Positions 7,772 to 64,000 are shown, counted from the first letter of the stretch. The stretch is DNA of 64,000 nt from an uncultured Candidatus Saccharibacteria bacterium (GCA_964637185.1 CAZWVB010000001.1:160972-224971); one strand, 5' to 3'. Numbers and translations are program-made. Notes: generated by a model not told the origin, from the sequence alone.

Positions 7772-7782
7772 AGTTCTGCTAA

Positions 7783-9832: not shown

Positions 9833-9836
9833 ATAC

Positions 9837-10100: not shown

Positions 10101-10102
10101 CT

Positions 10103-10354
10103 ATGTCAAAAGTCTTACGCTTTCTAACCCAATCCGACTTTGCTTTTGTCTGGAAATCGGCGCTATATCTGATACTAGGCTCGGTCTGGCTGGCGCCATC
10201 TGGGCATAGGATAATCCCAATCGGGTTGATAGTCGGCTTTGTGCTGGTGCACTTCATCGAATCCTTGCGCATCGATCGCCGGGTGGAGTTTGGACTGTTG
10301 GTGGTAGGTGCGGCATTTGGGCTGTACGGCCTAGGTATCACTATCAATTGGTGA
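10103..10354 (+). CDS. Hypothetical small membrane protein (83 aa)
   Basis: Two or three hydrophobic helices. Immediately upstream of rplC. Confidence 0.4.
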   Translation: MSKVLRFLTQSDFAFVWKSALYLILGSVWLAPSGHRIIPIGLIVGFVLVHFIESLRIDRRVEFGLLVVGAAFGLYGLGITINW

Positions 10355-10496
10355 CAAAACACTTGACACCAGATAGAGCTATCTGGTAGACTTATATCCG
10401 ATACAGATCACTGGGAAACCGCCAGGTCCGACTCACCCGGAAACCGGCACTAGGTTTGCCAGGATTGTTGTTTTATAGGGTAACTACAGGATAAGA

Positions 10497-24932: not shown

Positions 24933-25400
24933 TCAGACCGGCACGTGTTCATCCATCAGCCCTAGGTGGCAGATGTAGGCCTGGCCACGCTCGGCGTTGA
25001 CCAGCTGGAAGATCGGGTCCTCGATGGTGGCCTGTGCGTCAGCGAGCAGGTACTCGATGCCGTGGATGCACCACTCGTCGGGGCGATCGACGTGGGCTGT
25101 CTTGAAGAAGATCCCGTAGGTGGCTTCCGCCGAATCGTCCGGCGGGCTCCCGATCACGTAGGTGAAGTCCACCATGACGTGCTCACGCCAGGCCGCGCGG
25201 ATCCTGAGGTCGTTCTCGGGGTGCACGGGCGCATCCGGCTGGCCCCGGTAGTGGTCGCGGATGAGCGAGACCGTGAGCTCGTCGGCGAACTTCTCGGCTG
25301 CCGATTTGCTCTTGAACAGCGCCACAGGACAAGTCCGGTCGGCCCAGAGGTTGCCGAAGCGCTGTGGCTTGAACACCACATAGCGATCTGCAGAGGTCAT
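24933..25400 (-). CDS. Hypothetical protein (~155 aa), GC-rich islet
   Basis: ORF track 24933..25454. The likely start is the ATG at 25400 (MTSADRYVVF...) with GGGAG 8 nt upstream. The GC-rich hairpin TTCCGACGAgtcgcaTTCGTCGGAA at 24881-24906 is a likely terminator for this gene. Confidence 0.5.
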   Translation of the reverse strand: MTSADRYVVFKPQRFGNLWADRTCPVALFKSKSAAEKFADELTVSLIRDHYRGQPDAPVHPENDLRIRAAWREHVMVDFTYVIGSPPDDSAEATYGIFFKTAHVDRPDEWCIHGIEYLLADAQATIEDPIFQLVNAERGQAYICHLGLMDEHVPV

Positions 25401-25477
25401 TAGCATCTCCCGTTGTCGAGGTATTGCCTGATTTGGACTGTTGCATTTTATCATAAAATAGTAATAAAATCAAGTAT

Positions 25478-35343: not shown

Positions 35344-35994
35344 CTAGACCGGAGGCTGCGAGGGGCTGATCGGGGTGGCCAGGATCTTGGTGGTAGACAC
35401 ACTCTGCTCGATCAGCTCGCTGAGCTTGGCCTTGAGCTCGGGGCTGGCCTGCTTGTCGTAGTTCTCCCAGGCCACGTCGACCTGTAGCGCCTCGAGCGCG
35501 TCGGCCAGCTCTTCGTCGTTCAGCGTGCCGAGGAACTTCCAGATCAGTTTGGGGTGTGACGCCAGGAAGTTGGGGTCGAAGTGCACGCCTTTCACGATGG
35601 ACTCGCGGTCGGTCGTGCCCAGCGCCTTGAGGAACTCAACTGCCTTGCCGGCCTTGACGTTGCGGCCGAGCACGATGACACGCTGCACCTTCATGCTGCG
35701 CTGCTGACCGGCCTTGCGGTACTCGATGCCGGTGACGCCCTTGTAGTTGGGTTCGTCGAGCCGACTGTTGATGGCCGCCTTGGCTTTGGTCTCAGACTTC
35801 TCGACTACCCGCTTGCGCTCACGCGCGCGGTACAGGCGCCAGCCGAAGTAGGCCAACGCCAACAGGCGCTTGAGCGACGAAACCTTCAGCTCGGGCGGTT
35901 GGGTGTCCTCTTCGCCGAGGACGATGAGTCCGGGTACGAGAGCTGACGCGTCTCGCCGGCCGTACTCCTTGCCACGGTCCCGGGATCGTGCCAT
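35344..35994 (-). CDS. Hypothetical basic protein (~216 aa), GC-rich islet
   Basis: ORF track 35344..36066. The likely start is the ATG at 35994 (MARSRDRGKEY...) with AGGAG upstream. A CCAGATATGG palindrome plus TATGCT lies at 36038-36053 on the minus strand. Confidence 0.5.
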   Translation of the reverse strand: MARSRDRGKEYGRRDASALVPGLIVLGEEDTQPPELKVSSLKRLLALAYFGWRLYRARERKRVVEKSETKAKAAINSRLDEPNYKGVTGIEYRKAGQQRSMKVQRVIVLGRNVKAGKAVEFLKALGTTDRESIVKGVHFDPNFLASHPKLIWKFLGTLNDEELADALEALQVDVAWENYDKQASPELKAKLSELIEQSVSTTKILATPISPSQPPV

Positions 35995-36194
35995 GATTGC
36001 TCCTATCTGTCGGAGGGATGGATTTTTACAGCTCACCAAGCATACCATATCTGGCTTCTTATGCAAACATAAGCTGTTTTCTGCTAAAATATGTAGGTAT
36101 ACTGATAGCTTGCAATGACAGACATAAATAGTTATGGAGGATTGGCGTTTCAGTACCGCTTCGTGCTCTAGCTTGTCTAGATTTTGTAATTATT

Positions 36195-49013: not shown

Positions 49014-50507
49014 ATGAGTAGAAAATCAGTCATAATTGTTGGCGCGGGTATTGGAGGTTTGTGTACAGCAGCAAGGCTGTCATCACTTGGTTATCAGGTG
49101 TCTGTTTTCGAAAAAGAAGCCTTAGTCGGCGGTCGCGCCAACCGCATCGAAAAAGATGGTTACAAGTTTGATATTGGGCCTACGCTACTCATGATGACAG
49201 ATGTACTGGAAGAAACCTTCAGATTTTGTGGCAAAAAAATGACTGACTATCTAGAGTTGATACAGCTTGAACCAAATTATCAGGTGGTATTTGGTGATCA
49301 TAGTCGGGTAGAAGTGAGTAGCAACCTACCGCGTTTAACAAAGCAACTCGCCCGACTAGATGAAAAAGCACCCGAGCAGTTTTTTGACTATTTTGCCAGT
49401 GTCAGTGAGTTCTATAGATTGTCACGACACAACTATATAGAGCGAAACTTCGACAAATTGAGCGAGTTTGTAAATATTCGTCATGGCAGCAAGCTTCTCT
49501 ACAAACATGGCCTACAAAATTTGTGGGATTATACTGGTAGATATTTTGACGATGAAAGATTGCGACAACTTTTTAGTTTTCAAAGCATGTATTTGGGGGT
49601 TAGCCCATATGAGGCTCCGGCCATTTATTCCACAGTAAGTTATATGGAGACGGCTTTAGGTATTTGGTACCCAAAAGGTGGTATGTATAGTTTGAGTTTG
49701 GCTTTGGCCAAACTCTGTCGAGACCTGGGTGTAAAAATAACTACCAATAGCCCAGTGGAACAAATCATCGTAGAGTCAGGTCGAGCCAAAGCCGTACGAG
49801 TCGGTGGAAAGCAACATGCAGCCGATATTATTGTAGCCAACTCTGATTTGGTCTATAGCCATCAGTATCTGCTGAATGAAACCAGCCAGTTCGACAAATA
49901 CACGCCAAAACTTCAGAAGCTACGCCAAGCAAGCTCAGCGATGCTGTTTTACTGGGGTGTCAACGACGACTTGGATGGTTTGTTGCATCACAATGTGATT
50001 CTTAGCAATCAGTTCAAACAAAATTTGCAAGATATATTCCACAATCAGCGTTTGCCCAAAACGCCTAGTTTTTACGTTTACGTTCCTACAAAAACAGACC
50101 CGCGGCTTGCCCCGCCAAACCGTCATATAATGTATGTACTTGTGCCGGTGCCCAATCTCAGCGCCAACATCGATTGGCCAAAGGCGGCTGCACGTCTAAA
50201 AAAACAAGTTCTAGCTCGCTGTCTTCAGGAATTCAAAATTGATTTGACTGACAAAATAGACTCAGAAGAGGTATTTGGTCCCGAAGATTTCAAAACAAAG
50301 TTTAATTTGCCTGATGGATCTGCCTTTGGCCTCAGTCACACTCTGGCGCAATCTGCATATTTTCGTCCCCACAATAAATCCACTGACATCAAAAACTTAT
50401 TTTTTGTGGGCGCTAGTACTTATCCAGGTGGTGGTGTCCCTATGGTCACTATCAGCGCAAAACTTGTGGTTGAGCGTATTCAAAAAGGAGAAGCTAATGC
50501 TGTCTAA
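49014..50507 (+). CDS. crtI: Phytoene desaturase
   Basis: 497 aa. N-terminal FAD-binding motif IIVGAGIGGL. CrtI-type overall. Confidence 0.85.
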   Translation: MSRKSVIIVGAGIGGLCTAARLSSLGYQVSVFEKEALVGGRANRIEKDGYKFDIGPTLLMMTDVLEETFRFCGKKMTDYLELIQLEPNYQVVFGDHSRVEVSSNLPRLTKQLARLDEKAPEQFFDYFASVSEFYRLSRHNYIERNFDKLSEFVNIRHGSKLLYKHGLQNLWDYTGRYFDDERLRQLFSFQSMYLGVSPYEAPAIYSTVSYMETALGIWYPKGGMYSLSLALAKLCRDLGVKITTNSPVEQIIVESGRAKAVRVGGKQHAADIIVANSDLVYSHQYLLNETSQFDKYTPKLQKLRQASSAMLFYWGVNDDLDGLLHHNVILSNQFKQNLQDIFHNQRLPKTPSFYVYVPTKTDPRLAPPNRHIMYVLVPVPNLSANIDWPKAAARLKKQVLARCLQEFKIDLTDKIDSEEVFGPEDFKTKFNLPDGSAFGLSHTLAQSAYFRPHNKSTDIKNLFFVGASTYPGGGVPMVTISAKLVVERIQKGEANAV

Positions 50508-51552
50508 ATACATTGCCCACAACAAAGAGATGATAGATCACGCACTCAAAGAACATTTTGATAATACCGAAGCTCAATTGTCAGGTGATAGAGTAGTCCT
50601 TGATTTAGTTGAGAGTATCAAAAGTGTAGCCATGAACGGCGGCAAACGACTTAGGCCATTGTTGATGAGCTTGAGCTACGAGATGTACGGTGGGGGCAAC
50701 AAGTTGCTGAAGGTTCAGGCCGGTATTGTACTAGAGCTGCTGCATACATTTATGCTAATCCACGACGACATTGAAGACGGTGATTTACAGAGACATGGTG
50801 GCCCGACTGTTGAGGCGATATATCGTAACAAACTGACTGGCAAGAATATCGAACAAAGAAATCATATTGCTAGGGGATGCGCTATCAATGCTGGTGACGT
50901 AGCGCATTCGATGGTTTATGCTAAGCTCAGCTCACTTTCCGCACAGCCCTCAACAATAGTGTCGTTGGTAAAACTGGTAAGTGACAAGAGCATCATCACC
51001 GCTCTAGGGCAGCAGCACGACATACTTGCGCCCACTACAAAAAAGCTAGTGCTAGCAGATGTTGAGCGTATTGCTCTATACAAGACTGCCTACTATTCGT
51101 TTATCTTGCCATTGTTGTTTGGATCAACACTCGCGGAAAATACCAAAGACGGTAAAAAACTCGAGCAGATTGGTCGTAACCTAGGCGTGGCATTTCAAAT
51201 CACAGATGACTTGTTGGGTGTATATGGACAATCAGAAGTGTTGGGTAAGCCAAATATATCGGACATGAGGGAAGGCAAAAATACCATGTTATTGCATCAC
51301 GCACTAAGCATGGCCCAGCCAAGTCAGATCAAGACTATCAAACAGTATTGGGGGAACTCTCAGGCCGACAGTGCCGCACTGGACCAGATCCGTGAAATTT
51401 TTGAAGTATCTGGTGCCAAGCAGAAAGCCATCAATGATGCTAGTGAGTTACACGCCATTGCTGTCAAAAATATCAAGGGTCTTAAGATCGACACTAAGTA
51501 TCAACAATTATTGCAAGAATTCTCAGATAAATGCGTCAACAGGATATTTTGA
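50497..51552 (+). CDS. crtE: Polyprenyl (geranylgeranyl) diphosphate synthase
   Basis: First aspartate-rich motif LIHDDIEDGD, second aspartate-rich motif FQITDDLLG. The ATG at 50497 has AAAGGAG upstream. The ORF track entry 50275.. is an in-frame upstream extension that overlaps the 3' end of crtI, which lies in a different reading frame. Confidence 0.85.
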   Translation: MLSKYIAHNKEMIDHALKEHFDNTEAQLSGDRVVLDLVESIKSVAMNGGKRLRPLLMSLSYEMYGGGNKLLKVQAGIVLELLHTFMLIHDDIEDGDLQRHGGPTVEAIYRNKLTGKNIEQRNHIARGCAINAGDVAHSMVYAKLSSLSAQPSTIVSLVKLVSDKSIITALGQQHDILAPTTKKLVLADVERIALYKTAYYSFILPLLFGSTLAENTKDGKKLEQIGRNLGVAFQITDDLLGVYGQSEVLGKPNISDMREGKNTMLLHHALSMAQPSQIKTIKQYWGNSQADSAALDQIREIFEVSGAKQKAINDASELHAIAVKNIKGLKIDTKYQQLLQEFSDKCVNRIF

Positions 51553-52403
51553 TGTCTCAGCTAACTTACAACCAGACTGTCTATACCCGAGCCAGCTACC
51601 AGACTAGCAAGTTATGGACACGCGAATTTTCCTCGTCTTTTTATAAAGCAACAACACTTTTGGACGAACCGATCAGGACTCACATATTTAATGTTTATGG
51701 GTTAGTCCGTTTGGCAGATGAAATAGTGGATAGTTGGCGACCATCGGACATGGCTACAATGTTATCAGCTCTTGAGAAAGATATTTACAAAGCCACAAAG
51801 TCTGGTTTTAGTACCAACCCGATCGTCCATGCATATGCAATTACCGTAGTGCAATTTGGTATCGATCAGGATTTGATAAAAGCTTTTTTTGCGAGCATGA
51901 AAATGGACATAGCAAAAAGTAAGTACACACAAACCGAATTTGAGCGCTATATATATGGTTCGGCACAGTCAGTTGGTTTGATGTGCTTGGCGGTGTTTGT
52001 AAATGGCGATCGGCAGATGTATAACAGGCTAAAGCCAGCCGCCATGTCTCTCGGCGCAGGTTTTCAAAAGGTCAATTTTTTGCGTGACTTAGGTAGTGAT
52101 GAGCAGGAGCTAGCTAGGTATTATTTCCCAAAACAAAACGCCAAACAAATCACTATCAAACAATACCGGGCTATCATTGCCGATATCAATGCTGATTTTA
52201 CAACGGCTCAAATAGGCATCGTTCATTTGCCAAAAAGCTCCCGCTATGCAGTAGCGCTAGCCTTGGCTTCTTACAAGTTGTTGTTAGACAAATTATCACA
52301 ACAATCACTCTCAGATGTTTACGGTGCTAGATATAGAGTAGGATCATTACAGAAAGCTCAGTTGCTCACAAAATATCGTCTGGTCAAAATGCTTGGAAGA
52401 TGA
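51552..52403 (+). CDS. crtB: Phytoene synthase
   Basis: Squalene/phytoene synthase fold: YIYGSAQSVGLMCL, DEL... The start is either the ATG at 51552 (TGATG overlap with the crtE stop) or the ATG at 51531. Confidence 0.85.
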   Translation: MSQLTYNQTVYTRASYQTSKLWTREFSSSFYKATTLLDEPIRTHIFNVYGLVRLADEIVDSWRPSDMATMLSALEKDIYKATKSGFSTNPIVHAYAITVVQFGIDQDLIKAFFASMKMDIAKSKYTQTEFERYIYGSAQSVGLMCLAVFVNGDRQMYNRLKPAAMSLGAGFQKVNFLRDLGSDEQELARYYFPKQNAKQITIKQYRAIIADINADFTTAQIGIVHLPKSSRYAVALALASYKLLLDKLSQQSLSDVYGARYRVGSLQKAQLLTKYRLVKMLGR

Positions 52404-52415
52404 GACACTAGAAGT

Positions 52416-53588
52416 ATGGCCCCAAAATCATCCAAATTTGTGGTGGATGGTATTGCATATGAACTTAGTCCGGATGGTGCTCGTCGTGTAGGTGTCAAAA
52501 CCAAGCCCAAAATTGGTGTTAAGAGACCAACCCATACCCAAACCAGCAATCCTGAGATCATACCACTCAATACCGAAAGTCGTAATACAAGCAGCTGGCT
52601 TTGGATATTGACCAGCGTGCGCATGGTGCTTTCAATCCGGTTTTGGTTGGTAGTATTTTTACCCATTGGATTACTGATTGTCATTAAGACCCTACAACTC
52701 AATTCGTATGAGTTGGTCCAAACTGGCTCCAATTGGTTGACACTTGCCAAAATAGCGCGCCTACAACTCACGGCGGTTTTTTTTGCTGCTCTGCTGGTAG
52801 TAGGTATTTTTCTAGAGGCTTGGTTGCGCAAATTGGCTGCTGATAATAAGCCAACGTATTGGAGTATGATGGCGGCGATTGTTGCATCATCACTTGGCTA
52901 TGGCGTGTTAATAATGATGGCAGCGGCGTTAGTGTTTGGCGTGTGTCTGATGACGATTAATCAGTTGTATGTAGCCTTACCTATTTTGACCGTCTTCATA
53001 TGCTTACTAATCGTGGCGAGCTGGCTCATGTTTGCTCTATGGTGTTGGTCTCGTCGCAACTTAGTGTTGTCTGGATTTGGCCAGTCCTTGAAGGTGAATC
53101 GACAAATCTTATTGCCCAAATCAGCGAACGCTGGATTTCTTGCCACTACAGGCTATTCAGCAATACGTATCTTGCCAGCCACTATGACACTGCTGCTGCT
53201 TTTGCTAGTAATAGGTATAATTACTTTGGTATTTGTATCTGGTTTGTCGGTAGGCTGGCAAGCATTAACAATGATCTTGGGCTTGGTGTTAAGTCTGTTG
53301 ATGCTTAGCTATGATCATCTTGCAAAACTCCAATACTGGCGACAAGTGTTGAAACCTGCCGATCAATACAAACGGTATCCGTCGGGTGCTTTGACCATGC
53401 TAGGAGTCGATGCCCTTGTGGTTGTATTAGTGGCCGTAGCACTTATGGTACAGTTGGTGATCCCAAAACTACTCTTGAAAGCACATCTGACCACCAAAGA
53501 CATCAAAAAAACCTTTGATCAACTCAATCTTACACTGCCGTCACCCAAGCAGGTCAAACCATTTGACAACTCTACAGAAAACAGGTAA
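52416..53588 (+). CDS. Hypothetical polytopic membrane protein (390 aa)
   Basis: Roughly 8-10 predicted TM helices. No recognised motif. Immediately downstream of crtB. Confidence 0.5.
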   Translation: MAPKSSKFVVDGIAYELSPDGARRVGVKTKPKIGVKRPTHTQTSNPEIIPLNTESRNTSSWLWILTSVRMVLSIRFWLVVFLPIGLLIVIKTLQLNSYELVQTGSNWLTLAKIARLQLTAVFFAALLVVGIFLEAWLRKLAADNKPTYWSMMAAIVASSLGYGVLIMMAAALVFGVCLMTINQLYVALPILTVFICLLIVASWLMFALWCWSRRNLVLSGFGQSLKVNRQILLPKSANAGFLATTGYSAIRILPATMTLLLLLLVIGIITLVFVSGLSVGWQALTMILGLVLSLLMLSYDHLAKLQYWRQVLKPADQYKRYPSGALTMLGVDALVVVLVAVALMVQLVIPKLLLKAHLTTKDIKKTFDQLNLTLPSPKQVKPFDNSTENR

Positions 53589-54373: not shown

Positions 54374-54811
54374 ATGGCAGAATCAAAACAAGTACTCGCA
54401 AAAGTAAAAATGGTATTGATGGGTGGTGGTGCCACCCCAGCTCCTCCAGTTGGTTCGAGCTTGGGTCAGCATGGTGTCAACATGATGGATTTTATCAATC
54501 CATTCAATGAGCAGACCCAGGATCGCAAAGGCCAGCCTACTCCTGTAGTAGTGACTATCTATGAAGACAAGTCTATGACTTTTGTCATCAAAGGTACCCC
54601 TGCCAAAACACTTATCAAAGAAGCTCTCAAGCTCAAAAGTGGCAGTGGCGTGCCCAACAAAGACAAGGTGGGCAAACTCACTGATGCTCAGCTAACCCAA
54701 ATAGCTGAGGCCAAAATGGCTGATCTTAATGCCAATGATATTGAGGCGGCTAAGAAAATCATCGCCGGTACGGCTCGGAGCATGGGCGTCGAGACAGAGT
54801 TGAAGAAATAA
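54374..54811 (+). CDS. rplK: 50S ribosomal protein L11
   Basis: 145 aa. Confidence 0.95.
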   Translation: MAESKQVLAKVKMVLMGGGATPAPPVGSSLGQHGVNMMDFINPFNEQTQDRKGQPTPVVVTIYEDKSMTFVIKGTPAKTLIKEALKLKSGSGVPNKDKVGKLTDAQLTQIAEAKMADLNANDIEAAKKIIAGTARSMGVETELKK

Positions 54812-54863: not shown

Positions 54864-55826
54864 ATGCCAACTAAGAAAGTTGAAGCAAAAGAATCTAGGA
54901 AAACCAGTAAGGCATCAGTTGCAGAAAAATCAGCAGCAGCTGTAAAGGATGAAGTAGCCACGGACCCAACTAACAAAGCTACGACCAAAGCAGGTAAGCA
55001 TAGCGCCAAAGCTCAAGCTGAAGCCGAAGCCAAACAGGCCAAGGAAGCTCGCAAAGCAGATATCAAAAAAGAGGCAGAGGCTAAGGTTGAAGTGCCCAAG
55101 CCAACCCAAAAACCACGCGTCAAGCGCTACACCAAGAACCAAAAAGCTGTTCGCGAGCTGGTTGATAATGACAAGCTATATAGTATCGATGAAGCAATCG
55201 AGCTGCTGCCCAAAATTTCCAAGACCAAATTTGATGCTACTGCAGAAATTCATATAGCTTGCAATATCGATACCAAACAAGCTGACCAACAGGTGCGTAG
55301 TAGCGTGTCATTGCCCGCCGGTACAGGCAAGACTGTGCGTGTAGCTGTACTAGCTGACGATAAAGACGCCGAAGCTGCTAAGAAAGCTGGCGCTGACATT
55401 ACCAATGCCGAAGAGCTACTGGCGGCCATAGGCAAAGAAAAGTTTGATTTTGATGTATTGGTAGCAACACCTGCCAAGATGGCTGAGCTTGGTCGCTTTG
55501 CCAAAGTGCTTGGCCCCAAAGGCTTAATGCCTTCACCCAAGAACAATACAGTGACTGCCGACCCAGCCGCTGCTGTAACTGAGATCAAGAAGGGTCAAGC
55601 CGAGCTGCGTGCCGATAGCAACGGTATCGTTCATGTAGCTTTTGGCAAACTCAGCTTCAAGCCAACCGATCTAGCCGCCAATCTCAAAGCTGTTGTATCA
55701 GGGCTCATGCAAGCCAAACCAGCGGGCGTCAAGGGCGTGTTTGTGCGCAGCATGTTTGTAAGCGCTACTATGAGCCCAAGTATCAAGCTTGATGTAGCTG
55801 CCGCTCAAAAAGACAGCAAGCAATAA
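54864..55826 (+). CDS. rplA: 50S ribosomal protein L1 with a ~90-aa lysine/alanine/glutamate-rich N-terminal extension
   Basis: 320 aa. An L1 core follows the low-complexity N-terminus. Confidence 0.93.
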   Translation: MPTKKVEAKESRKTSKASVAEKSAAAVKDEVATDPTNKATTKAGKHSAKAQAEAEAKQAKEARKADIKKEAEAKVEVPKPTQKPRVKRYTKNQKAVRELVDNDKLYSIDEAIELLPKISKTKFDATAEIHIACNIDTKQADQQVRSSVSLPAGTGKTVRVAVLADDKDAEAAKKAGADITNAEELLAAIGKEKFDFDVLVATPAKMAELGRFAKVLGPKGLMPSPKNNTVTADPAAAVTEIKKGQAELRADSNGIVHVAFGKLSFKPTDLAANLKAVVSGLMQAKPAGVKGVFVRSMFVSATMSPSIKLDVAAAQKDSKQ

Positions 55827-55956
55827 GTATTTTGAGCGCACATAACTTCGTTGCCAGCTGCGATGCTCATGTAATGTAGACCGCCTACATCTTACTTCGC
55901 TTCTCGCTGGCGCCTTGTTCTGCGCTGCTCAAATCTACTAATTTCAAATCTCTTCA

Positions 55957-55984
55957 AATGATCCGCCAACTGGCGGATCATTTT
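55957..55984 (+). terminator. Rho-independent terminator after rplA
   Basis: AATGATCCGCC-aact-GGCGGATCATTTTGG. Confidence 0.75.
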
Positions 55985-56029
55985 GGTTATGGTTGGTAGG
56001 ATTGATATTATTTGTTAGGCTAAGTAAAT

Positions 56030-56848
56030 ATGAGAGGGCCAAATCCAATTGATTTTGATAAGTGGTTGCGCGATCGATCGCGTCAGGCCGACTTTGATTT
56101 GGCCGATGTTGAGTTATATCAGCGGAAAGCAAACCAACCATTTTCTGGGGTATTGGGTGATGCTGAGCTCAAAGCCTGCATGAATACTGGTCAGGTGGTG
56201 ATCGATCCATTTGAGCCTGAGCTACTCAACTCCAGCAGCTATGATGTGCGTTTGGGTGGTAACTATTACGTCGCCGAGAAAGTTGGCGACCGAGTGGACT
56301 TCTCACCCTATACCAAAGAAGAAGTTGAGCTTTACTACTCTGGCCCTCACAAGGCTACTACTCATGAGCAGTGGTGCAAACAGCATCGTCGCCAACCATT
56401 CGCCGGCATCGATCGCGACGAACATATCATAGTGTTGGCGCCGGGTGAATGCATATTGGCCCATACGGTGGAGTACATTGGCGCGAGCTATGGCATCACT
56501 ACCATGATGAAGGCTCGCTCAAGTCTGGGCCGTATCAACATCAGCTCTTGCGACGACGCCGGTTGGGGAGATGTTGGCTACATCAATCGTTGGACCATGG
56601 AGATACGTAACAAAAACACCAGCGTATGGGTGCCTTTGGTAGTTGGAATGCCGATTGCCCAAATGATTTTCTTCTGGGTAGCAGCTAGCACCATAGATTA
56701 TGGCGCTACTGGCCATTATCAATCGGGGGTTGATATCCGTAAACTACAAAAAGCCTGGCGCCCCGAAGGAATGCTACCTAAATTGTACTCTAGCAGCAAT
56801 ACCGCATTGCGCAAGAAGTTGTCCAAAGACAAAAAGACTGGCTTTTGA
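56030..56848 (+). CDS. dCTP deaminase family protein (Dcd-like; possibly a bifunctional dCTP deaminase/dUTPase) with N- and C-terminal extensions
   Basis: Aligns to E. coli Dcd blocks: SYDVRLG vs TVDVRLG, LAPGECILAHTVEYI vs LHPGELALAVTLESV, KARSSLGRINI vs DGRSSLARLGL, DAGWGDVGYINRWTMEIRN vs DPGWSGCIVLEFYN. Confidence 0.75.
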   Translation: MRGPNPIDFDKWLRDRSRQADFDLADVELYQRKANQPFSGVLGDAELKACMNTGQVVIDPFEPELLNSSSYDVRLGGNYYVAEKVGDRVDFSPYTKEEVELYYSGPHKATTHEQWCKQHRRQPFAGIDRDEHIIVLAPGECILAHTVEYIGASYGITTMMKARSSLGRINISSCDDAGWGDVGYINRWTMEIRNKNTSVWVPLVVGMPIAQMIFFWVAASTIDYGATGHYQSGVDIRKLQKAWRPEGMLPKLYSSSNTALRKKLSKDKKTGF

Positions 56849-56948
56849 ACTTAGTTTTCAAGCTTTTTAGTTTGAGCACAATCATATATACTAAATCCTG
56901 ACTTAGAGGCGGAAAGTTTCCGACCTTGAAAACTAGGAGGTGAGGGCT

Positions 56949-57449
56949 GTGCCCCACATCAACAATCCAGGGGTGGATTGGTGCGTCACGGCCTACATCG
57001 TCCGTGAACATGAAGGTGAGTTGCAGGTTCTACTGTGCGACCATCGCAAGCTCGGCACATGGGTGCCGATTGGTGGCCACGTGGAACCGCACGAAGACCC
57101 CATCACGGCGCTGTTTCGCGAAGTTCGTGAGGAGTGTGGTGGGATCGATATCAAGCTGCTCTACGGCAAAGCGTCGCGTTCCCACTACGGTCCGAAGAAC
57201 TACGACCTGCCCAAGCCAGACTTCTTCGATCTTCACCCGATCGAGACCGAGGTGGATCATCAGCATGTTGGCATGGGCTGGATCTGCTGGCTCGACGCTG
57301 GCGAACCGACGCTCAGCGATGAGCATCGAGAGCTGCGTTGGTTCAGCCGAGGTGATCTCAGTGGGGTCAGCATGCCGATCAACGTGCTCAATCACGCCTG
57401 CGACGCGCTGCACTACACCAAGCTCGACATCAGCTGGGTAAAGGAGTAA
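56949..57449 (+). CDS. Nudix hydrolase (GC-rich)
   Basis: Nudix box GGHVEPHEDPITALFREVREECG. GTG at 56949 has AGGAGG 8 nt upstream. The ORF track start at 56940 is an alternative. Confidence 0.75.
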   Translation: MPHINNPGVDWCVTAYIVREHEGELQVLLCDHRKLGTWVPIGGHVEPHEDPITALFREVREECGGIDIKLLYGKASRSHYGPKNYDLPKPDFFDLHPIETEVDHQHVGMGWICWLDAGEPTLSDEHRELRWFSRGDLSGVSMPINVLNHACDALHYTKLDISWVKE

Positions 57450-57452
57450 GAC

Positions 57453-58070
57453 ATGTCTCAACCACTCTATATTGCACTTGAGGGTGTTGAGGGTTGTGGC
57501 AAGTCCACGCAAGCTCAACTCCTCGCCGATCGACTCGGTGCTGTTCTGACTCGTGAGCCAGGCGGCACCCCGATGGGCAGCATGGTTCGCCAGATCTTGC
57601 TCGATCCGAACACCGGAGAGCTCGAACCCATGGCCGAAGTGTTGCTGTTCAATGCCGACCGTGTGCAGCATCTGCACGAGGTGGTGTTGCCGGCGCTGCA
57701 GGCTGGCCAGCCAGTGGTCTCTGATCGCAGCTATGTCAGCAACTGTGTCTACCAAGGCCACGCTCGTGGGCTGGGTGCCGACTATGTGCGCTCGGTCTGC
57801 AGCCTGGTGGTGACCGAGCTGTTCCCGCATCGAATCTTCGTGCTGGATGTGGACCTGGCTGACTCAATGGCACGGATCAGTGCCCGTGGGGGTGAACTCG
57901 ACCGCTTCGAACAAGAAGGAGCGGAGTTTCATGCCAAGCTCGTAGAGGGGTTCCGCATCGAAGCTCAGAAGGGGCTGCCTGGTCAGTTCGTGTTCATCGA
58001 TGGCCGCGGCAGCGTGGAAGAAGTCCAACAATCCATCTGGGCTCATGTCGAGCCCTTGCAAGCAGCCTGA
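57453..58070 (+). CDS. tmk: Thymidylate (dTMP) kinase
   Basis: P-loop IALEGVEGCGKST, TREPGGT and LID-region DRFE. Confidence 0.9.
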   Translation: MSQPLYIALEGVEGCGKSTQAQLLADRLGAVLTREPGGTPMGSMVRQILLDPNTGELEPMAEVLLFNADRVQHLHEVVLPALQAGQPVVSDRSYVSNCVYQGHARGLGADYVRSVCSLVVTELFPHRIFVLDVDLADSMARISARGGELDRFEQEGAEFHAKLVEGFRIEAQKGLPGQFVFIDGRGSVEEVQQSIWAHVEPLQAA

Positions 58071-58082
58071 GAGGAGGGCAGC

Positions 58083-58352
58083 GTGAGTGCGCCACTGCTA
58101 GATATGAAGGTCCGCTTCAACCAGGAGCGGAAGATGTGGGAGGCTTATCGGCGTGCTCCGCGCACCGTCAACGACTCTGTCGGCCACCCGCGTCACAAGC
58201 CAGAGGTTGAAGTAGTGGTAGAAGCCGGTGACATGGCTACGTTTCGCGAGAAACTAATCGATCACTTACTCCGGCCGTACTTCGAGCGAGCACAAGAAGA
58301 AGTCGATGCCGCGATCGATGCGGCATATCGTGAACAACCGCGCCCCAACTAG
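58083..58352 (+). CDS. Hypothetical protein (89 aa), GC-rich
   Basis: GTG start with GAGGAGGG upstream. No motif. Confidence 0.4.
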   Translation: MSAPLLDMKVRFNQERKMWEAYRRAPRTVNDSVGHPRHKPEVEVVVEAGDMATFREKLIDHLLRPYFERAQEEVDAAIDAAYREQPRPN

Positions 58353-58377
58353 GGCTACATCAACAAGGAGGGGCGCA

Positions 58378-60213
58378 ATGCCCACGAAAGAGAGAAACCC
58401 ATACATCCGGACCTACAAGGGGCAGAAGGTGCCGACCAAGCTTGGCATCCGCTACCTGAGCGAGATCGTGACCGATCCGACTGGGCCGGTCTACTTCTTC
58501 ACCGCACAAGCCAACATCGTGGTGGTGGCGGCAGCCATGGCCCGGCTCAGCCGGCGCGATGGCGACCTGCGGGTCACCATCCTCGAGGAGTTCGCTGGTG
58601 TGCAAGACGCCGCCGTGCTCACCAAGCTGCGCAAGCACGAGCTGCTCAAGGTGATCCGTGAGCTGGAGAACGCGTTGAAGTTCTTCGAGACCGAGTTGGG
58701 CGGCTCATTTGCTCGGGACGAGGAGCTACCTCACCAGATCAAGGCACTGCGGACGCTGCGGCAGGCGATTGCCGACCTCACGGCCGGCCGACTGCGGACT
58801 GAAGAGGCGGCCGCGCTGATCAACCGTGTGGTCACCGAGTTCGGTGACGATTCGGTGCAGCAGCTGATCACGGTGATGTTCGTCTGCGAGGGTGTGAGCA
58901 ACCTCATGACCAAGGAGCTGGAGTGGGGGCGAGTGGCTGCGGCCTATCTCGAGCAGTCCACCCGCTATATCTACTTCGACACCAAGGTCGACGGTCGCTA
59001 CAAGTACTTCCGGCCAGAGCTCGAGGACTTGCTCGCGTACTACGAGTTCATCATGGATGAGATCTTCGATCGTTACTCCACGGTGGTGCGTGAGGTCACC
59101 GAGTATGTCAAGGTGCACAACCCGCGTCCGGACAAGGCTGCGGATCCGGGCGGGCATGCCGGCTGGCCTGGTTCGGTGCGGGCGGAAGCCTGCGATGCTG
59201 CACGGGCCATCCTACCGGTTGGCACCCGCTCGACGGTGGGTATCACCATGTCGGCTCAGGCTCTCGATGCGCTGATCATGCGACTGCTGTCACGTGAGCT
59301 GCCCGAGGCTCGGGCCATGGGCGCCGCGCTGCTGCGCGAAGCCCGCAAGGTGATCCCGGAGTTCTTGGAGCGCACCGACAAGCCTGACCGCGGGCTGATG
59401 ACCATCAGCTACTTGGCCGAGACGCGGGCTGGTCTGCGCGAGTTCGCGCTCAACGAGCTACCGCCTGCCAAGTTGGCCAAGAAGAGCAAGAAGGCCGAAG
59501 AGCCGGTGACGCTACTGGACTACTACCCACATGATGAGCGTGAGTTGGGACCAGGCTTGCTCTACGCCGTCGATGGTCGCTCCATGACCGAGCTGGGCAA
59601 GCTGGTTGGCAAGCTGCCGCGCAAGAAGCTGCGCAAGCTCATGCTGATCTACTTCGGCGAGCGCCTCAACCGACGTCATCGGCCGGGGCGAGCTGCCGAG
59701 GCAGCCAGCTTCAACTGGGAGCTGGTCGGCGACTATGGCACCTTCCGCGACCTACAGCGGCACCGCATGGTCAGTGCCATGGAGTGGCCGGCGCTCACGC
59801 CGTATCTCGGCTACGAGGTGCCGGAGCTGGTGACGAAGGCTGGGCAGCACGACAACTTCGTTCGGGCCTTCGAGCTGTCCAGCGAGCTCTACAACGAGTT
59901 GTACGGCGCTGGCTACAAGTACGAGGCTCAGTACGCGCTGTGCATGGGCTACCGCATGCGCTACCGCTTCATCACCAGTCTGCGTGAGCTGTTCCATCTG
60001 CTGGAGTTGCGCACCAGTCCGCAAGGTCATCCCGGCTACCGCAAGCTGTGCAACCTCATGTACGACGAGGTGGCCCGGGTCTACCCGATCAGCGCGGAAG
60101 CCATGTGCTTCGTCAACCAGCAAGACACGCTCGGTGAGCTGACCCGCATGGCCTCGGAGCGGGCCACAGCCGACAAGCTGGCCAAGCTGGCGGAGCGGGC
60201 CACTGCGGAGTGA
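58378..60213 (+). CDS. thyX: FAD-dependent thymidylate synthase ThyX, tandem (pseudo-dimeric) two-domain form
   Basis: ~611 aa. The C-terminal half carries the ThyX RHR motif (LQRHRMVSAME). The N-terminal half shows a degenerate ThyX-like block (FVCEGVSNLMTKELEWGR). ATG at 58378 with AAGGAGG upstream. Confidence 0.75.
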   Translation: MPTKERNPYIRTYKGQKVPTKLGIRYLSEIVTDPTGPVYFFTAQANIVVVAAAMARLSRRDGDLRVTILEEFAGVQDAAVLTKLRKHELLKVIRELENALKFFETELGGSFARDEELPHQIKALRTLRQAIADLTAGRLRTEEAAALINRVVTEFGDDSVQQLITVMFVCEGVSNLMTKELEWGRVAAAYLEQSTRYIYFDTKVDGRYKYFRPELEDLLAYYEFIMDEIFDRYSTVVREVTEYVKVHNPRPDKAADPGGHAGWPGSVRAEACDAARAILPVGTRSTVGITMSAQALDALIMRLLSRELPEARAMGAALLREARKVIPEFLERTDKPDRGLMTISYLAETRAGLREFALNELPPAKLAKKSKKAEEPVTLLDYYPHDERELGPGLLYAVDGRSMTELGKLVGKLPRKKLRKLMLIYFGERLNRRHRPGRAAEAASFNWELVGDYGTFRDLQRHRMVSAMEWPALTPYLGYEVPELVTKAGQHDNFVRAFELSSELYNELYGAGYKYEAQYALCMGYRMRYRFITSLRELFHLLELRTSPQGHPGYRKLCNLMYDEVARVYPISAEAMCFVNQQDTLGELTRMASERATADKLAKLAERATAE

Positions 60214-60237
60214 GATCTCCGCATAGCAAAACTCTCA

Positions 60238-60273
60238 AGCGAGCCCGAGGGACTACCGTCCCTCGGGCTCGCT
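60238..60273. terminator. Perfect 15-bp GC-rich hairpin after thyX (terminator candidate, no U tract)
   Basis: AGCGAGCCCGAGGGA-ctaccg-TCCCTCGGGCTCGCT. Confidence 0.5.
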
Positions 60274-60296
60274 CTCGTTATGATGTATAATTATCC

Positions 60297-61553
60297 ATGA
60301 TGAACAAATTGTCTGAGCTTACCAATGCTGAGTATGATCGTCAGCGCGACAGCCTCAATCTCATTGCGTCCGAAAACTATCCTAGTCCGAGAGTTTTGGA
60401 GCTATTAGGATCTGTGTGGATGAACAAGTACGCCGAGGGCTATCCAGGCAAGCGCTATTATGCTGGCAATGTTCATGCCGATGAGCTAGAGGATTTTGTG
60501 CAGTCTAAAGCACTGGAAGTATTTGATCCAACTGGTGAATATGGAGCCAATGTACAAGTGTTGTCAGGCAGCCCGGCCAACGCCATGGTGTTTTTGAACG
60601 TACTGGAGCCGGGCGACACAGTACTAAGCCTAGATTTGCCCAGTGGCGGTCATCTTAGTCACTTGCACGGCACTAGCAGCTGGCTCAAATTTTTCGCACA
60701 TGAGACTTATGGTACGGTAGCATCAGACAGCGGCTACGAGGTAGATATCAGTGATTATGAGGCCAAGCTCAAATCAGCCAAGCCCAAGCTCACTATCATA
60801 GGGTTCTCAGCCTATCCCAAGCGAGTTGATTTTGAGGCTATGATCAAACTAGCGCACGAGCATGGTAGTCTGGTACTGGCTGACATCGCTCATATCAATG
60901 GTCTGATCGCGGCAGGACTTCACGACAGTCCATTTAAACCTGGCGAGCTGGGGGCTGATTTTGTCAGCATGACCACTCACAAGACTATGCGTGGTCCGCG
61001 CGGCGCGCTACTTTTTGCCAAGCAAGAGTATATGGACAGTCTCAACAAGACTGTATTTCCTGGTACTTCAGGAGGTCCTCATCTGCATCAGATAGCTGCT
61101 GTCGGCCAAAGCTTGCTGGAGATACTCGGTGAGGATGTGTACCCAGATGGCCGGGCATTTCGCGATTATGCTAGTGATATCATCGACAATTGCCGGGCAC
61201 TCGAAGATGGTATGACTCAGCATGGCTTGGAAGTGGTAAGCCCTACCCAGACGCATCTGAGCTTGGTACGTTTGCCAGCATCGGTGGACAGCCTAGAATT
61301 ACAGCAAAAACTTGAACAGATTGGTATCGTGACCAATCGCAATAGTGTACCCAATGACCCCAAAACTCCTTGGCGCCCAAGCGGTTTGCGTCTTGGCACG
61401 GCGGCGCTCACCAGCCGTGGGCTGAGCACACACCATGCCAGCCAGTTAGGTGCTTTGATAGCAGGTGTCGCGATTGGCAAACAAAATGAGGCTGAGGCTG
61501 CTAACCAAACCCAACAAATACTGGCTGATATAGACTGGTTTTACACCAAATAG
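60297..61553 (+). CDS. glyA: Serine hydroxymethyltransferase
   Basis: 418 aa. ...LIASENYPSP..., PLP-lysine region TTHKTMRGPRG. Confidence 0.93.
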   Translation: MMNKLSELTNAEYDRQRDSLNLIASENYPSPRVLELLGSVWMNKYAEGYPGKRYYAGNVHADELEDFVQSKALEVFDPTGEYGANVQVLSGSPANAMVFLNVLEPGDTVLSLDLPSGGHLSHLHGTSSWLKFFAHETYGTVASDSGYEVDISDYEAKLKSAKPKLTIIGFSAYPKRVDFEAMIKLAHEHGSLVLADIAHINGLIAAGLHDSPFKPGELGADFVSMTTHKTMRGPRGALLFAKQEYMDSLNKTVFPGTSGGPHLHQIAAVGQSLLEILGEDVYPDGRAFRDYASDIIDNCRALEDGMTQHGLEVVSPTQTHLSLVRLPASVDSLELQQKLEQIGIVTNRNSVPNDPKTPWRPSGLRLGTAALTSRGLSTHHASQLGALIAGVAIGKQNEAEAANQTQQILADIDWFYTK

Positions 61554-61682
61554 CATTGACATAAGCATTAATACCTGATATAATCTTCGTACCACTTCAG
61601 GTGGCCGGAGACCAAGTGAATACCCCAGGCGGACACGAGGTCTTTTTTGTTTCTATTCACCCACGGCGACCAAGGGAGGACC

Positions 61683-61991
61683 ATGACTCGCCGATACCAC
61701 AAGAAACGTCAGCCGCCAGAGCTGACGGTACGCACCTATTTGCGCTGTGCACCCAACAGCGCGCATCCGCAGGAGGTGCTCTGGCTCAGCTGGTGCCAGC
61801 TCGGCAACGGAGCCGAGCCGCTGCACAGCTTCTGCCAGCATCCAAGCTGCGACGGCCGTGGTCAGCGTGTGCCTACAAGCGAGCTGACCAACAAGTACCG
61901 CCAAGCGCGCTTCGAGGCTGGTGAGATCGCGCTGGCCTTGCCCGATGGGCAGTGGCTGGTACAGCCGGCCAAGTCCGTGGCACGGGTCTGA
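61683..61991 (+). CDS. Hypothetical Cys-rich protein (~102 aa), GC-rich islet
   Basis: ATG at 61683 has AAGGGAGG upstream. Six Cys (C..., CQHPSCDG). A GC-rich hairpin GGGAAGGGGC-gaga-GCCCCTTCCC follows at 62007-62030. Confidence 0.4.
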   Translation: MTRRYHKKRQPPELTVRTYLRCAPNSAHPQEVLWLSWCQLGNGAEPLHSFCQHPSCDGRGQRVPTSELTNKYRQARFEAGEIALALPDGQWLVQPAKSVARV

Positions 61992-62035
61992 AGTAGGCAA
62001 GAGGTTGGGAAGGGGCGAGAGCCCCTTCCCACACC

Positions 62036-62065
62036 TTGACTAATCTAGCCATTATCTGATACAAT
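62036..62065 (+). promoter_or_regulatory. Sigma70-like promoter for rplJ-rplL (-35 TTGACT, -10 TACAAT) followed by a ~160-nt leader
   Basis: TTGACT at 62036-62041, TACAAT at 62060-62065. The long untranslated leader is the expected location of the L10(L12)4 autoregulatory structure. Confidence 0.55.
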
Positions 62066-62223
62066 ATTTGCGATTACCAAAGACTGTAGCTTCCCCAGCT
62101 GGCGGATTAAATATGCTACAAGAGGTAAACAATCGATATGATTGTTGGACACGAAGTCTTTGGAGTATATCCAAAGATTTTTTGTTTGGTAATCGCGAAC
62201 ATTACATTAACAAGGAGAGGTAC

Positions 62224-62754
62224 ATGGCAAAAACACGTGCTCAAAAAGAGCAAGATGTGCAAGCCTTGGCCGACTCTTTCCAAAATCGCAAGATTGCAGT
62301 GCTCACCGACTATCGCGGCCTGACCGTGGCAGCTGTGACCGAGCTACGCAACAACTTACGTGAGGCAGGGGTAAGCTACAAGGTAGCCAAAAACACTCTC
62401 GTCAAAGTCGCTCTTGCTGACACCAGGCTAAAGGATCTCGATACCAGCCTTTTTGCTGGACCGATGGCCATAGCATTTGGTGACGACGAAGCGGCCACAG
62501 CTAAGGTGGTCTATGACTTTGCCAAAGCCAACCCGGCACTTGAGATACTCAGTGCCATCGACGAAGCCGGCACTATCCTCAGTGTCGAGCAAGTCCAGGC
62601 TCTGGCTAAGCTACCAAGTCGCGAGCAACTTACTGCCCAGGTGGTGGGTACGATCGCAGCCCCGCTCAGTGGTTTTGTACGAGTATTGAATGGAAATCTA
62701 ACCGGACTATTGTATGCGCTCAATGCCATCGGTGAGTCCAAAGGAGAAGCTTAG
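62224..62754 (+). CDS. rplJ: 50S ribosomal protein L10
   Basis: [19 protein letters not shown]... ATG at 62224 with AAGGAGAGG upstream. The ORF track start at 62068 is an upstream extension through the leader. Confidence 0.92.
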
Positions 62755-62756
62755 AA

Positions 62757-63248
62757 ATGGCCGAAGAAACAACCAAACCAGAAGAGACCAAAGTTGAAAA
62801 TCCGCCAACTGGCGCGGAAGAAGTAGCTGAAGCTACTGAAGAAAAGACAGAAGCAAAAGCCGAAGTTCCTGCTAAGTTCAAAGACTTGGTGGGTGAGATC
62901 GAAAAACTAAGTGTGCTAGACCTAAGTGAGCTTGTCAAAGTACTCGAAGATCACTTTGGTGTCAGCGCGAGCGCCCCAGTAGCTGTTGCTGCTGCAGGTA
63001 GCGGTGGCGGAGAAGCCGCCGAGGCCGCTGAAGAGAAGAGTGAATACGATATCTTCATGAGCGCAGCAGGCGAAAAGAAAATTGACGTGATTAAGGCCGT
63101 ACGTGAAATCACAGGCCTAGGCTTGGCCGAGTCCAAAGCCTTGGTGGACGGTGCTCCTAAGATGGTCAAAGAAAAAGTCAAGAAAGAAGAAGCCGAAGAA
63201 GCCAAGAAGCAGCTTGAAGAAGCTGGCGCAACTATCGAGTTGCAATAA
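62757..63248 (+). CDS. rplL: 50S ribosomal protein L7/L12 with a ~35-aa acidic N-terminal extension
   Basis: 163 aa. An L12 core ([29 protein letters not shown] ... C-terminal domain ...[23 protein letters not shown]) preceded by an E/T/K-rich extension. Confidence 0.92.
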
Positions 63249-63266
63249 CTCAGACTATCTTCTATC

Positions 63267-63292
63267 AAAAGAGCCCCAGCCGGGGCTCTTTT
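63267..63292 (+). terminator. Rho-independent terminator after rplL
   Basis: AAAAGAGCCCC-agcc-GGGGCTCTTTTG. Confidence 0.75.
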
Positions 63293-63310
63293 GCAATATA
63301 ATGGTCAGTT

Positions 63311-63928
63311 ATGGCAGGTATGGTTACTCACATAGTTCTAACTGATCAAGTCTATGACGAGCAGTTTGGTAAGTTTGATCGAAAAAGTTTTGTAGTTGGT
63401 ACAAGTTTTGCTGACATACGGTATTTGGGAGTGATAGAAAGAGACAAAACACATTACAGTGATGTCTCAATAGAACGAATTCGCAGTCAAGAAGACTCAT
63501 TTATTGCCGGGTTAATGTTTCATTCTTTGGTCGATAAAACTCGTGAAGATTACATCAAATCCAAATATATTTATAGAGAACTCCCAAAATCTGATTACAT
63601 TTCGCAAGCTATGAAAGTTTGTGAAGACATAGTTGTCTATCCTAAATGCAAACACTGGGGCCAATATGCAAATTACTTCGGTACCATTCTAGAAAATGAA
63701 AGAGATTATGGCATAGATGCGACTGAGATTGAGCGGTGGCATAATATTATTCGCACGGCCATCGGAAAACAGCCAGATTTAGTTATTACATCGGATATAC
63801 TGCAGCAGCTTCAGCTTGATAGTTCGGTAGTTGATGAGATCATGTCACTAGCCAAACAACTTTTGGCCAACCACGACACCAGCTATATATTGGATTTCTA
63901 CCGACAGTTCCCAGCCTGTCTCAAATAA
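63311..63928 (+). CDS. Hypothetical protein (205 aa), AT-rich
   Basis: ORF with no recognised motif. It follows a terminator, and TATAAT lies at 63296-63301. Confidence 0.45.
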   Translation: MAGMVTHIVLTDQVYDEQFGKFDRKSFVVGTSFADIRYLGVIERDKTHYSDVSIERIRSQEDSFIAGLMFHSLVDKTREDYIKSKYIYRELPKSDYISQAMKVCEDIVVYPKCKHWGQYANYFGTILENERDYGIDATEIERWHNIIRTAIGKQPDLVITSDILQQLQLDSSVVDEIMSLAKQLLANHDTSYILDFYRQFPACLK

Positions 63929-64000
63929 CTTTGTTTGGCATTTGTTTTGTTATCTGCTACACTAGTGGCAAGTAATTGAAGGAAGAGCAAAACAAATGGC

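Follow-up and report, generated by a model that had tools for sequence, protein, structure and literature searches.

A thymidylate-synthesis module between rplA and rplJ in Saccharimonadia and the likely history of its GC-rich tmk–thyX operon

Layout of the rplA–rplJ interval

Saccharibacteria are ultra-small episymbionts with a reduced metabolism that depend on a host, and the route by which they obtain dTMP bears on the degree of that dependence. The subject of this study is a 64,000-nucleotide stretch of DNA (the window, whose positions give all coordinates below) from an uncultured Candidatus Saccharibacteria bacterium of the class Saccharimonadia, in which seven genes, including those for thymidylate kinase (tmk) and for a tandem thymidylate synthase of the ThyX family (thyX), lie between the ribosomal-protein genes rplA and rplJ. 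Genes were called from a list of open reading frames (ORFs) together with Pfam and NCBIfam profile scans, with the start of thyX chosen from a 97%-identical protein (P0001), and all of them are on the + strand. The genes and signals of the interval and its borders are as follows.

54374-54811, + strand: rplK, the start of the upstream ribosomal transcription unit rplK-rplA
54864-55826, + strand: rplA (TIGR01169, 284 bits against a cutoff of 216)
about 55956-55985, + strand: terminator-like hairpin GATCCGCC/GGCGGATC and then ATTTT, 3' of rplA (fold z = -3.9)
56030-56848, + strand: dCTP-deaminase-like (DCD-like) gene (PF22769, E = 2e-28)
56870-56948, + strand: promoter-like region and putative leader of the GC-rich operon (-10 TATACT, a small hairpin, AGGAGG and then GTG)
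56940/56949-57449, + strand: Nudix gene (PF00293)
57453-58070, + strand: tmk (TIGR00041)
58083-58352, + strand: 89-aa ORF (ORF call)
58378-60213, + strand: tandem thyX (PF02511 in two stretches; 611 aa)
60238-60273, + strand: perfect 16-bp GC-rich hairpin after thyX (dG -38.7 kcal/mol, z = -7.7)
60297-61553, + strand: glyA (NF000586)
61556-61584, + strand: sigma-70 promoter TTGACA-17-TATAAT, 5' of the 4-Cys ORF (12/12 match to the consensus)
61683-61991, + strand: 102-aa 4-Cys ORF (ORF call)
62001-62037, + strand: GC-rich hairpin 3' of the 4-Cys ORF (z = -5.2)
62036-62065, + strand: promoter-like site 5' of rplJ
62059-62192, + strand: L10 leader-like RNA (RF00557, 39.1 bits, below the gathering score of 44; E = 0.0011)
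62224-62754, + strand: rplJ (profile scans)
62757-63248, + strand: rplL (profile scans)

The original prediction for this DNA had named the same seven genes in the same order (DCD-like, Nudix, tmk, 89-aa ORF, thyX, glyA and 4-Cys ORF), and the ORF, Pfam and NCBIfam scans confirm them; together they fill an rplA–rplJ gap of 6,397 bp. Control loci came from a search of genome contigs with the L1 protein, which returned 79 non-relative loci (from Bacilli and other bacteria) and one true relative, L004, a metagenome-assembled genome (MAG) of an uncultured Candidatus Saccharibacteria. The median gap in 70 unrelated bacterial loci is 213 bp, but 6 of the 70 have gaps of 1-7.5 kb. An assembly artefact as the source of the arrangement, or of the step in GC content described below, is ruled out by their joint recurrence in at least five independent assemblies (L001, L002, L004, L171 and L173).

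At this site one transcription unit, rplKA, naturally gives way to the next, rplJL. Terminators had been predicted after rplA, where a larger structured stretch (55827-55940, z = -4.9) indeed precedes the terminator-like hairpin, although the latter was not flagged in a strict terminator scan. At the other end, the separate promoter and leader foreseen for rplJ find a counterpart in the promoter-like site and in the L10 leader match, which is below its gathering score, covers the full length of the model and ends 32 nt 5' of the rplJ start. What had been described as an insertion inside an operon is real as a 6.4-kb gap, but it lies at a natural boundary and, as set out next, its placement is ancestral.

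Conservation of the module across Saccharimonadia

The order rplA-DCD-(Nudix)-tmk-(small ORF)-thyX-glyA-...-rplJ is found in L001, L002, L003, L004, L088/L089, L097 and L171, whose ThyX proteins are 83-84% (L001, L002, L004 and L171), 67% (L003, GCA_964565675.1) and about 54% (L088/L089 and L097) identical to that of the window. The neighbourhood common to these relatives comprises carotenoid-type genes, secE, nusG, rplK, rplA, DCD, tmk, thyX, glyA, rplJ, rplL, dnaX and dnaB. Two distant Saccharimonadales MAGs from NCBI (L086 and L087, nusG 70% identical) read rplA-tmk-x-DCD-(tmk-thyX fusion)-rplJ. Among the 28 closest metagenomic thyX loci from the Joint Genome Institute (JGI), 13 have L1 upstream and L10 downstream and a further 7 show one of these before the contig runs out, giving 20 of 28 with ribosomal neighbours; the remaining 8 are mostly too short to judge, and 52 more distant JGI thyX loci have no ribosomal neighbours. 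Because the placement is kept in the family relatives, the Saccharimonadales MAGs and the closest JGI loci, the position of DCD-tmk-thyX between rplA and rplJ is ancestral for Saccharimonadia. The module occupies this site in all relatives examined, and only the Nudix gene and the small ORFs are sporadic.

At the module there is no integrase-like ORF and there are no delimiting direct repeats, and no tRNA lies within 23 kb. This bears on the idea that the GC-rich operon is a nucleotide-metabolism cassette derived from a phage or other mobile element, which would suit the facts that genes for ThyX, Tmk, Nudix and dCTP deaminase are frequent in phages, that PHROG families match DCD and Tmk, and that the segment, which has a leader and an end hairpin of its own, acts as a unit. 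Besides the lack of integrase, tRNA and flanking direct repeat, a scan of IMG/VR gave a single ThyX relative, at 34% identity, and none with the leader, the PHROG matches to ThyX are weak (E = 1e-7), and there is no specific PADLOC match and no defence-specific or phage-specific signal from PADLOC and PHROGs. In all relatives, moreover, the genes have chromosomal orthologues at this site, and we regard a phage origin as very improbable.

The tandem ThyX protein and the predicted pathway

The thyX product matches PF02511 in two stretches (122.7 bits against a cutoff of 24.8, E = 2e-35) and scores 70.9 against the TIGR02170 equivalog, below the cutoff of 87.9, and is therefore placed in a divergent subfamily. 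The ThyX signature RHRxxS(x4)SxR is divided between its halves, with RHRMVS invariant in the C-terminal half only and EWGR...SYLEQSTRY in the N-terminal half only, and such complementary half-signatures suggest that the chain may be a pseudo-heterodimer that has only half as many active sites as usual. The N-terminal domain carries an insertion of about 65 aa common to the window clade and L003 only. An AlphaFold2 model (pLDDT 76, pTM 0.68) compared with the PDB by Foldseek gave top 50 matches that are all ThyX (probability 1.0, target TM-score 0.60-0.67), and on this model the protein is predicted to have the ThyX fold.

The search for ThyX homologues returned 4,561, of which the top 120 are all long forms, either tandem proteins of about 540 aa or Tmk-ThyX fusions of about 780 aa; every organism-named entry among these 120 belongs to Patescibacteria or Candidatus Saccharimonadales. 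In most other Saccharimonadia ThyX forms a fusion with a highly divergent Tmk domain, and a separate tmk is also kept in some of these (L086). With the window ThyX as query, phmmer detected no solved ThyX; with a 12-sequence profile the N-terminal half reaches the Mycobacterium tuberculosis ThyX at E = 0.005, and the C-terminal half reaches those of the virus PBCV-1 and Helicobacter pylori.

The DCD-like protein matches PF22769 with 99.6 bits (cutoff 27) and TIGR02274 with 87 bits, below the cutoff of 92.8; its nearest relatives of solved structure are the bifunctional, dUMP-forming enzymes of M. tuberculosis and Methanocaldococcus jannaschii. Tmk scores 158.9 bits against TIGR00041 (cutoff 83.25), and the P-loop GVEGCGKST can be read in its translation. 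GlyA, the serine hydroxymethyltransferase (SHMT), scores 386.8 bits against NF000586 (cutoff 335) and matches PF00464 at E = 6e-107. The inherited thymidylate core in the rplKA/rplJL gap consists of a DCD-family enzyme, a dTMP kinase and a tandem ThyX, to which SHMT is added in this family. From these family assignments, the DCD enzyme would turn dCTP into dUTP or dUMP, ThyX would methylate dUMP with methylenetetrahydrofolate (CH2-H4folate), and SHMT would regenerate that cofactor in a closed folate cycle; because ThyX returns tetrahydrofolate (H4folate), no dihydrofolate reductase would be needed. Tmk would then make dTDP, with the Nudix hydrolase as an accessory. The coherent dCTP→dU(T/M)P→dTMP→dTDP logic proposed earlier, with SHMT feeding ThyX, is thus supported.

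Phylogeny of the module

Neighbour-joining trees with 200 bootstraps were built for nusG+L11+L1, ThyX and DCD, and each recovers a family {window, L001, L002, L004, L003, L088, L097} at 100% bootstrap, with the same branching within the genus, (window,(L002,(L001,L004))). Tmk of the window type, Tmk of the L001 type and that of L088 form one clade, at 84% bootstrap and at 90% after Dayhoff-6 recoding. By phylogeny the genes of the operon are native to the family and not actinobacterial.

The original prediction had pointed the other way, and the rival that follows from it has the module, or its GC-rich middle, arriving in the rplKAJL cluster by recent horizontal transfer from a high-GC actinobacterial host. 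The anomaly in GC content and in GC at third codon positions (GC3) that prompted it is real, M. tuberculosis Dcd is among the best solved relatives of the DCD-like protein, and the best named Tmk matches outside the family are from Acidimicrobiales, Ilumatobacter and other Actinomycetota (47-55% identity; about 48% for Acidimicrobiia), with Acidimicrobiia Tmk as a weakly supported sister of the family Tmk (63-73%) in a sample picked by similarity to the query. The Tmk gene of L088, however, falls in the same clade with a genome-like GC of 0.42, and any old actinobacterial link of Tmk therefore predates the GC-rich block and is unrelated to it. The module position is conserved across Saccharimonadia, ThyX is of the tandem Patescibacteria type with a tree congruent with that of the ribosomal proteins, and its similarity to the actinobacterial enzyme is confined to the profile match at E = 0.005 given above. 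Tandem ThyX proteins on high-GC metagenome contigs (GC 0.65-0.75) are more distant, at 36-42% identity, than those of Saccharimonadia, at 45-58%, and outside the genus the homologues of the Nudix protein do not exceed 38% identity. A recent actinobacterial transfer is accordingly very improbable and already largely refuted: ThyX branches with the organism's own family and Tmk groups with family relatives, and the module is placed at this site across the clade, the very outcomes that the prediction itself had named as counting against it.

Base composition of the GC-rich block

The composition anomaly predicted for 56.9-60.2 kb is strong, in GC and in codon usage alike, and sharply bounded. At about 56.9 kb GC climbs from about 0.45 to 0.57, and at about 60.25 kb it drops in a sharp step from 0.61 to 0.50; it amounts to 0.58 in the Nudix gene, 0.60 in tmk, 0.57 in the 89-aa ORF and 0.63 in thyX, compared with 0.49 in rplA, 0.50 in DCD, 0.50 in glyA and about 0.47-0.50 in the flanks. 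GC3 of thyX is 0.82-0.83. The segment is equally GC-rich in five relatives, and the 4-Cys ORF forms a second islet (GC 0.64, GC3 0.76). Across the genus the GC3 of thyX exceeds that of the flanks by 0.36 to 0.41, and the corresponding difference in 15 other Saccharimonadia lineages is +0.04±0.04.

The GC-rich segment appears to be one operon, consisting of the leader, (Nudix), tmk, the 89-aa ORF, thyX and the 16-bp hairpin, with boundaries set from sequence features. Its genes are spaced 3-25 nt apart, and it closes at the hairpin, which lacks a U-tract; the perfect GC hairpin that had been predicted after thyX is present, at 16 bp and not 15.

This block is away from compositional equilibrium and is losing GC. 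Synonymous singletons in thyX, polarised by the other sequences in a set of seven, comprise 63 GC→AT changes and 9 AT→GC changes, and those in the non-GC-rich genes 51 and 49, respectively.

Small ORFs with a GC3 of about 0.8 are also scattered elsewhere in the window, at 24933-25454 (-), 35344-36066 (-), 5394-5699 (+) and about 1250-2700. They sit among ribosomal-protein operons and have no Pfam, PADLOC or PHROG match, and, being similar in composition to the tmk-thyX operon, they may derive from a common GC-rich gene pool. L003 carries a second, GC-rich DCD paralogue (L003 7429-8292, GC3 0.74, 51% identity to the window DCD) between rplA and the orthologous DCD, another GC-rich import at this site.

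Decoupled divergence and allele exchange

Divergence was measured at fourfold sites with correction for composition (d4), and NG86 dS was set aside on account of saturation and composition bias. The values for the flanks and for ThyX are as follows.

L001 and L004: flanks 0.23, ThyX 0.53
L002 and L004: flanks 0.41, ThyX 0.82
window and the others: flanks 1.6-1.95, ThyX 0.87-1.08

Over all pairs d4 thus spans 0.53-1.08 in ThyX and 0.23-1.95 in the flanks, so that relative to the flanks ThyX is about twice as divergent in close pairs and about half as divergent in distant ones. The GC-rich block has a genealogy of its own, decoupled from that of its flanks.

Between L001 and L004 the flanks are 94-99% identical in nucleotides and tmk is 59-69% identical; between L171 and L004 flank d4 is 0.17 and tmk d4 0.92, and the two differ in the presence of the Nudix gene. 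At least three divergent alleles occupy the tmk slot within the family. The window glyA is 65-66% identical to those of its genus mates and 62-70% identical to those of other family members, being no closer to the former than to L088 or L003, while for L1, L10 and DCD the identity is clearly higher within the genus. DCD also has an excess of divergence in close pairs.

The Nudix protein (PF00293, 50 bits against a cutoff of 21.1) has an intact Nudix box GHVEPHEDPITALFREVREECG (GX5EX7REUXEEXGU) in its translation and no NCBIfam equivalog match. Its close homologues number three, at 76-98% identity and all from the genus, with the next best at 38%, and the gene is present in some close relatives within the genus and absent from others. 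It follows exactly on the opening codons of the ancestral tmk: in L001 and L004 the sequence is GTG CCC CA|A CCG CTC TAC, giving Tmk MPQPLY, and in the window and L002 it is GTG CCC CA|C ATC AAC, giving Nudix MPHINN, with tmk restarting at ATG TCT CAA CCA CTC. The Nudix gene was inserted at the tmk start, and alleles of tmk, Nudix and glyA have been exchanged between close relatives.

Origin of the GC-rich operon

We consider it somewhat probable that an ancestral module had its tmk-thyX operon replaced from a GC-richer relative, and that the operon has been losing GC since and has been reshuffled within the genus. In the ancestor of the genus, homologous replacement would have brought in a copy whose source was a GC-richer, unsampled member of the family; slow loss of GC would have followed under the AT-biased mutation of the genome; and recombination between species of the genus would have continued across the whole rplA–rplJ interval, affecting tmk, the Nudix segment and glyA. 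A foreign origin of the operon, from a GC-richer relative rather than from Actinobacteria, is likely.

Several points weigh against this account. No donor was found: the ThyX insertion of about 65 aa occurs in only five protein clusters of 5.8 billion, of which the GC-richest is L003, with a GC3 of 0.67-0.68. The trees were made by neighbour-joining on 17 taxa, not by maximum likelihood, and can be distorted by GC-driven amino-acid shifts, as seen in a GARP (the share of glycine, alanine, arginine and proline) of 0.30-0.32 against 0.24-0.28. The family-level ThyX tree is congruent with the ribosomal tree and so compatible with vertical history and local GC enrichment. Finally, the per-site AT→GC rate is higher in the block than in the flanks, which implies an equilibrium GC3 of about 0.6 for the former and about 0.4 for the latter, and some GC-favouring force or import may therefore still act.

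The main rival takes up these last points, holding that inheritance was vertical throughout and that GC rose in place, through GC-biased gene conversion at a recombination hotspot or through selection on the mRNA or codons of this single transcription unit. Congruent family-level trees and the raised AT→GC rate would both be expected, the GC-rich stretch matches one apparent transcription unit from leader to hairpin, the locus clearly recombines, and in most Saccharimonadia the GC content of thyX is a little above that of its flanks, with the largest excess among the 15 other lineages, +0.13, in L003. Yet the 63:9 (7:1) excess of GC→AT changes is that of a block losing GC and not holding it, and DCD and glyA recombine at least as much with genome-like GC. 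Divergence that is raised in close pairs and lowered in distant ones needs import of alleles and not just a change of rate, and the GC-rich, genus-restricted orphans (Nudix, the 89-aa ORF, the 4-Cys ORF and others) point to an external GC-rich pool. We think enrichment in place unlikely on balance, while treating it as a serious contender to replacement from a GC-richer relative.

The leader of the operon invites one further reading. Its 24-nt core CTTAGAGGCGGAAAGTTTCCGACC (56902-56925) is identical in the window, L001 (9037-9060), L002 (8523-8546) and L004 (11675-11698), where the neighbouring DNA is only 60-85% identical; a partly conserved counterpart lies at about 9320-9340 in L003, and parts of the leader and start context are recognisable 5' of tmk in L003 and L088. 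From its sequence elements the stretch 56870-56948 would act as promoter and leader. Its fold has a z of only -3.15, there are too few divergent copies for covariation, and Rfam has no family for this leader or for that of the 4-Cys ORF. Conceivably, leader-(Nudix)-tmk-ORF89-thyX is a self-contained expression cassette that circulates horizontally among Saccharibacteria species and is kept distinct, both in its high GC and in its genealogy, by conflict or diversifying selection over the control of thymidylate supply in these host-dependent episymbionts, with the invariant leader of about 60 nt an undescribed cis-regulatory RNA controlling thymidylate synthesis, but we hold this to be improbable.

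Other genes and features of the window

Conservation of the 89-aa ORF is limited to the genus (62-100% identity, dN/dS about 0.2), and the ORF has no Pfam, NCBIfam or PHROG match. The 102-aa ORF, with four conserved Cys, is likewise a genus-restricted orphan that has only two real homologues among 1.84 billion representative proteins, the one in L002 (13927-14244) being 53.5% identical; two further weak matches to eukaryotic Cys-repeat proteins are spurious. The slot of this ORF holds a different small Cys-containing ORF in L004 (16542-16925) and a GC-rich 73-aa ORF in L171.

Among the ribosomal genes, rplA encodes a protein with an A/K/E-rich N-terminal extension of about 88 aa, and the product of rplJ (L10, start 62224) is 81-82% identical to its counterparts. 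The initiation regions of thyX (58356-58373) and rplJ (62203-62220) are near-identical, TACATCAACAAGGAGGGG and TACATTAACAAGGAGAGG, which may be coincidence. The rpoB and rpoC genes do not come next after rplL (window 63249-64000; L002 15629-19140), the next gene being a hypothetical one in the window and its relatives, beyond which the relatives continue with dnaX and dnaB.

Just 5' of secE-nusG lies a carotenoid-type cluster (49014-53588) with amine-oxidase/CrtI-like, polyprenyl synthase and squalene/phytoene synthase genes, which all family relatives share in syntenic position (upstream regions of L001, L002, L003, L088 and L171) and which is unexpected in such reduced genomes; relatives also have lycopene-cyclase and UbiA-glycosyltransferase genes nearby. 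The S10 operon is interrupted as well, by about 2.8 kb (7705-10496) between rpsJ (7381-7704) and rplC (10497-11147) that contain four ORFs, one of which encodes a further Nudix hydrolase (8690-9205). A third Nudix gene, with a fused winged-helix-like N-terminal domain, is at 538-1206.

Comparison with known systems

Within the library searched, no paper was relevant to thyX in Saccharibacteria, Patescibacteria or the Candidate Phyla Radiation, and for this reason the conserved placement, the tandem or Tmk-fused ThyX and the GC-rich mosaic operon appear to be undescribed. They nonetheless fall under phenomena already known, namely conserved gene clusters, xenologous replacement and amelioration, and this is a modest comparative-genomics observation and not a new kind of system. 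What it offers is a compact DCD-Tmk-tandem-ThyX(-SHMT) module, fixed between two ribosomal operons throughout the class, whose core operon is a GC-rich recombination mosaic in one genus. It is also a cautionary case, in which composition hinted at transfer from host to symbiont and phylogeny and synteny refute it; the signal was real and the obvious donor wrong.

Compared with the rplKAJL-rpoBC cluster and its L10 leader (RF00557) in Escherichia coli and Bacillus, the window keeps the order nusG-rplK-rplA ... rplJ-rplL, with a promoter and an L10-leader-like RNA directly 5' of rplJ and a terminator-like hairpin 3' of rplA. It differs in the 6.4 kb of nucleotide-metabolism genes between rplA and rplJ, in a leader that is below the Rfam gathering threshold and in the absence of rpoB after rplL within the window.

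The window ThyX shares a Pfam Thy1 match and, in its C-terminal half, the RHRxxS motif with the flavin-dependent thymidylate synthases (ThyX/FDTS; Thermotoga maritima TM0449, PDB 1o26), and its predicted fold matches ThyX of T. maritima, Thermus thermophilus and PBCV-1. Whereas these known enzymes are homotetramers of a subunit of about 220 aa, the window protein is one 611-aa chain of two ThyX-like halves that split the signature between them, it is 16-18% identical to solved ThyX, and in most other Saccharimonadia its counterpart is a fusion with Tmk (about 780 aa). The DCD-like protein has its best solved relatives in the bifunctional dCTP deaminase:dUTPases of M. jannaschii (1ogh) and M. 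tuberculosis (2qxx/2qlp), at E = 3e-11 to 1e-8, with which it shares a DCD-fold Pfam match; it differs from them in an N-terminal extension of about 40 aa and in internal insertions, at 272 aa compared with 161-204 aa.

In the model of Lawrence and Ochman, compositionally atypical genomic islands ameliorate after horizontal transfer. The GC-rich block resembles such islands in its GC and GC3 step, in its synonymous GC→AT excess towards the host and in its accessory orphans. It differs from them in the lack of mobility genes, tRNA and flanking repeats, in a donor that is placed inside the recipient's own family, and in being an orthologous replacement at a conserved site and not novel cargo.

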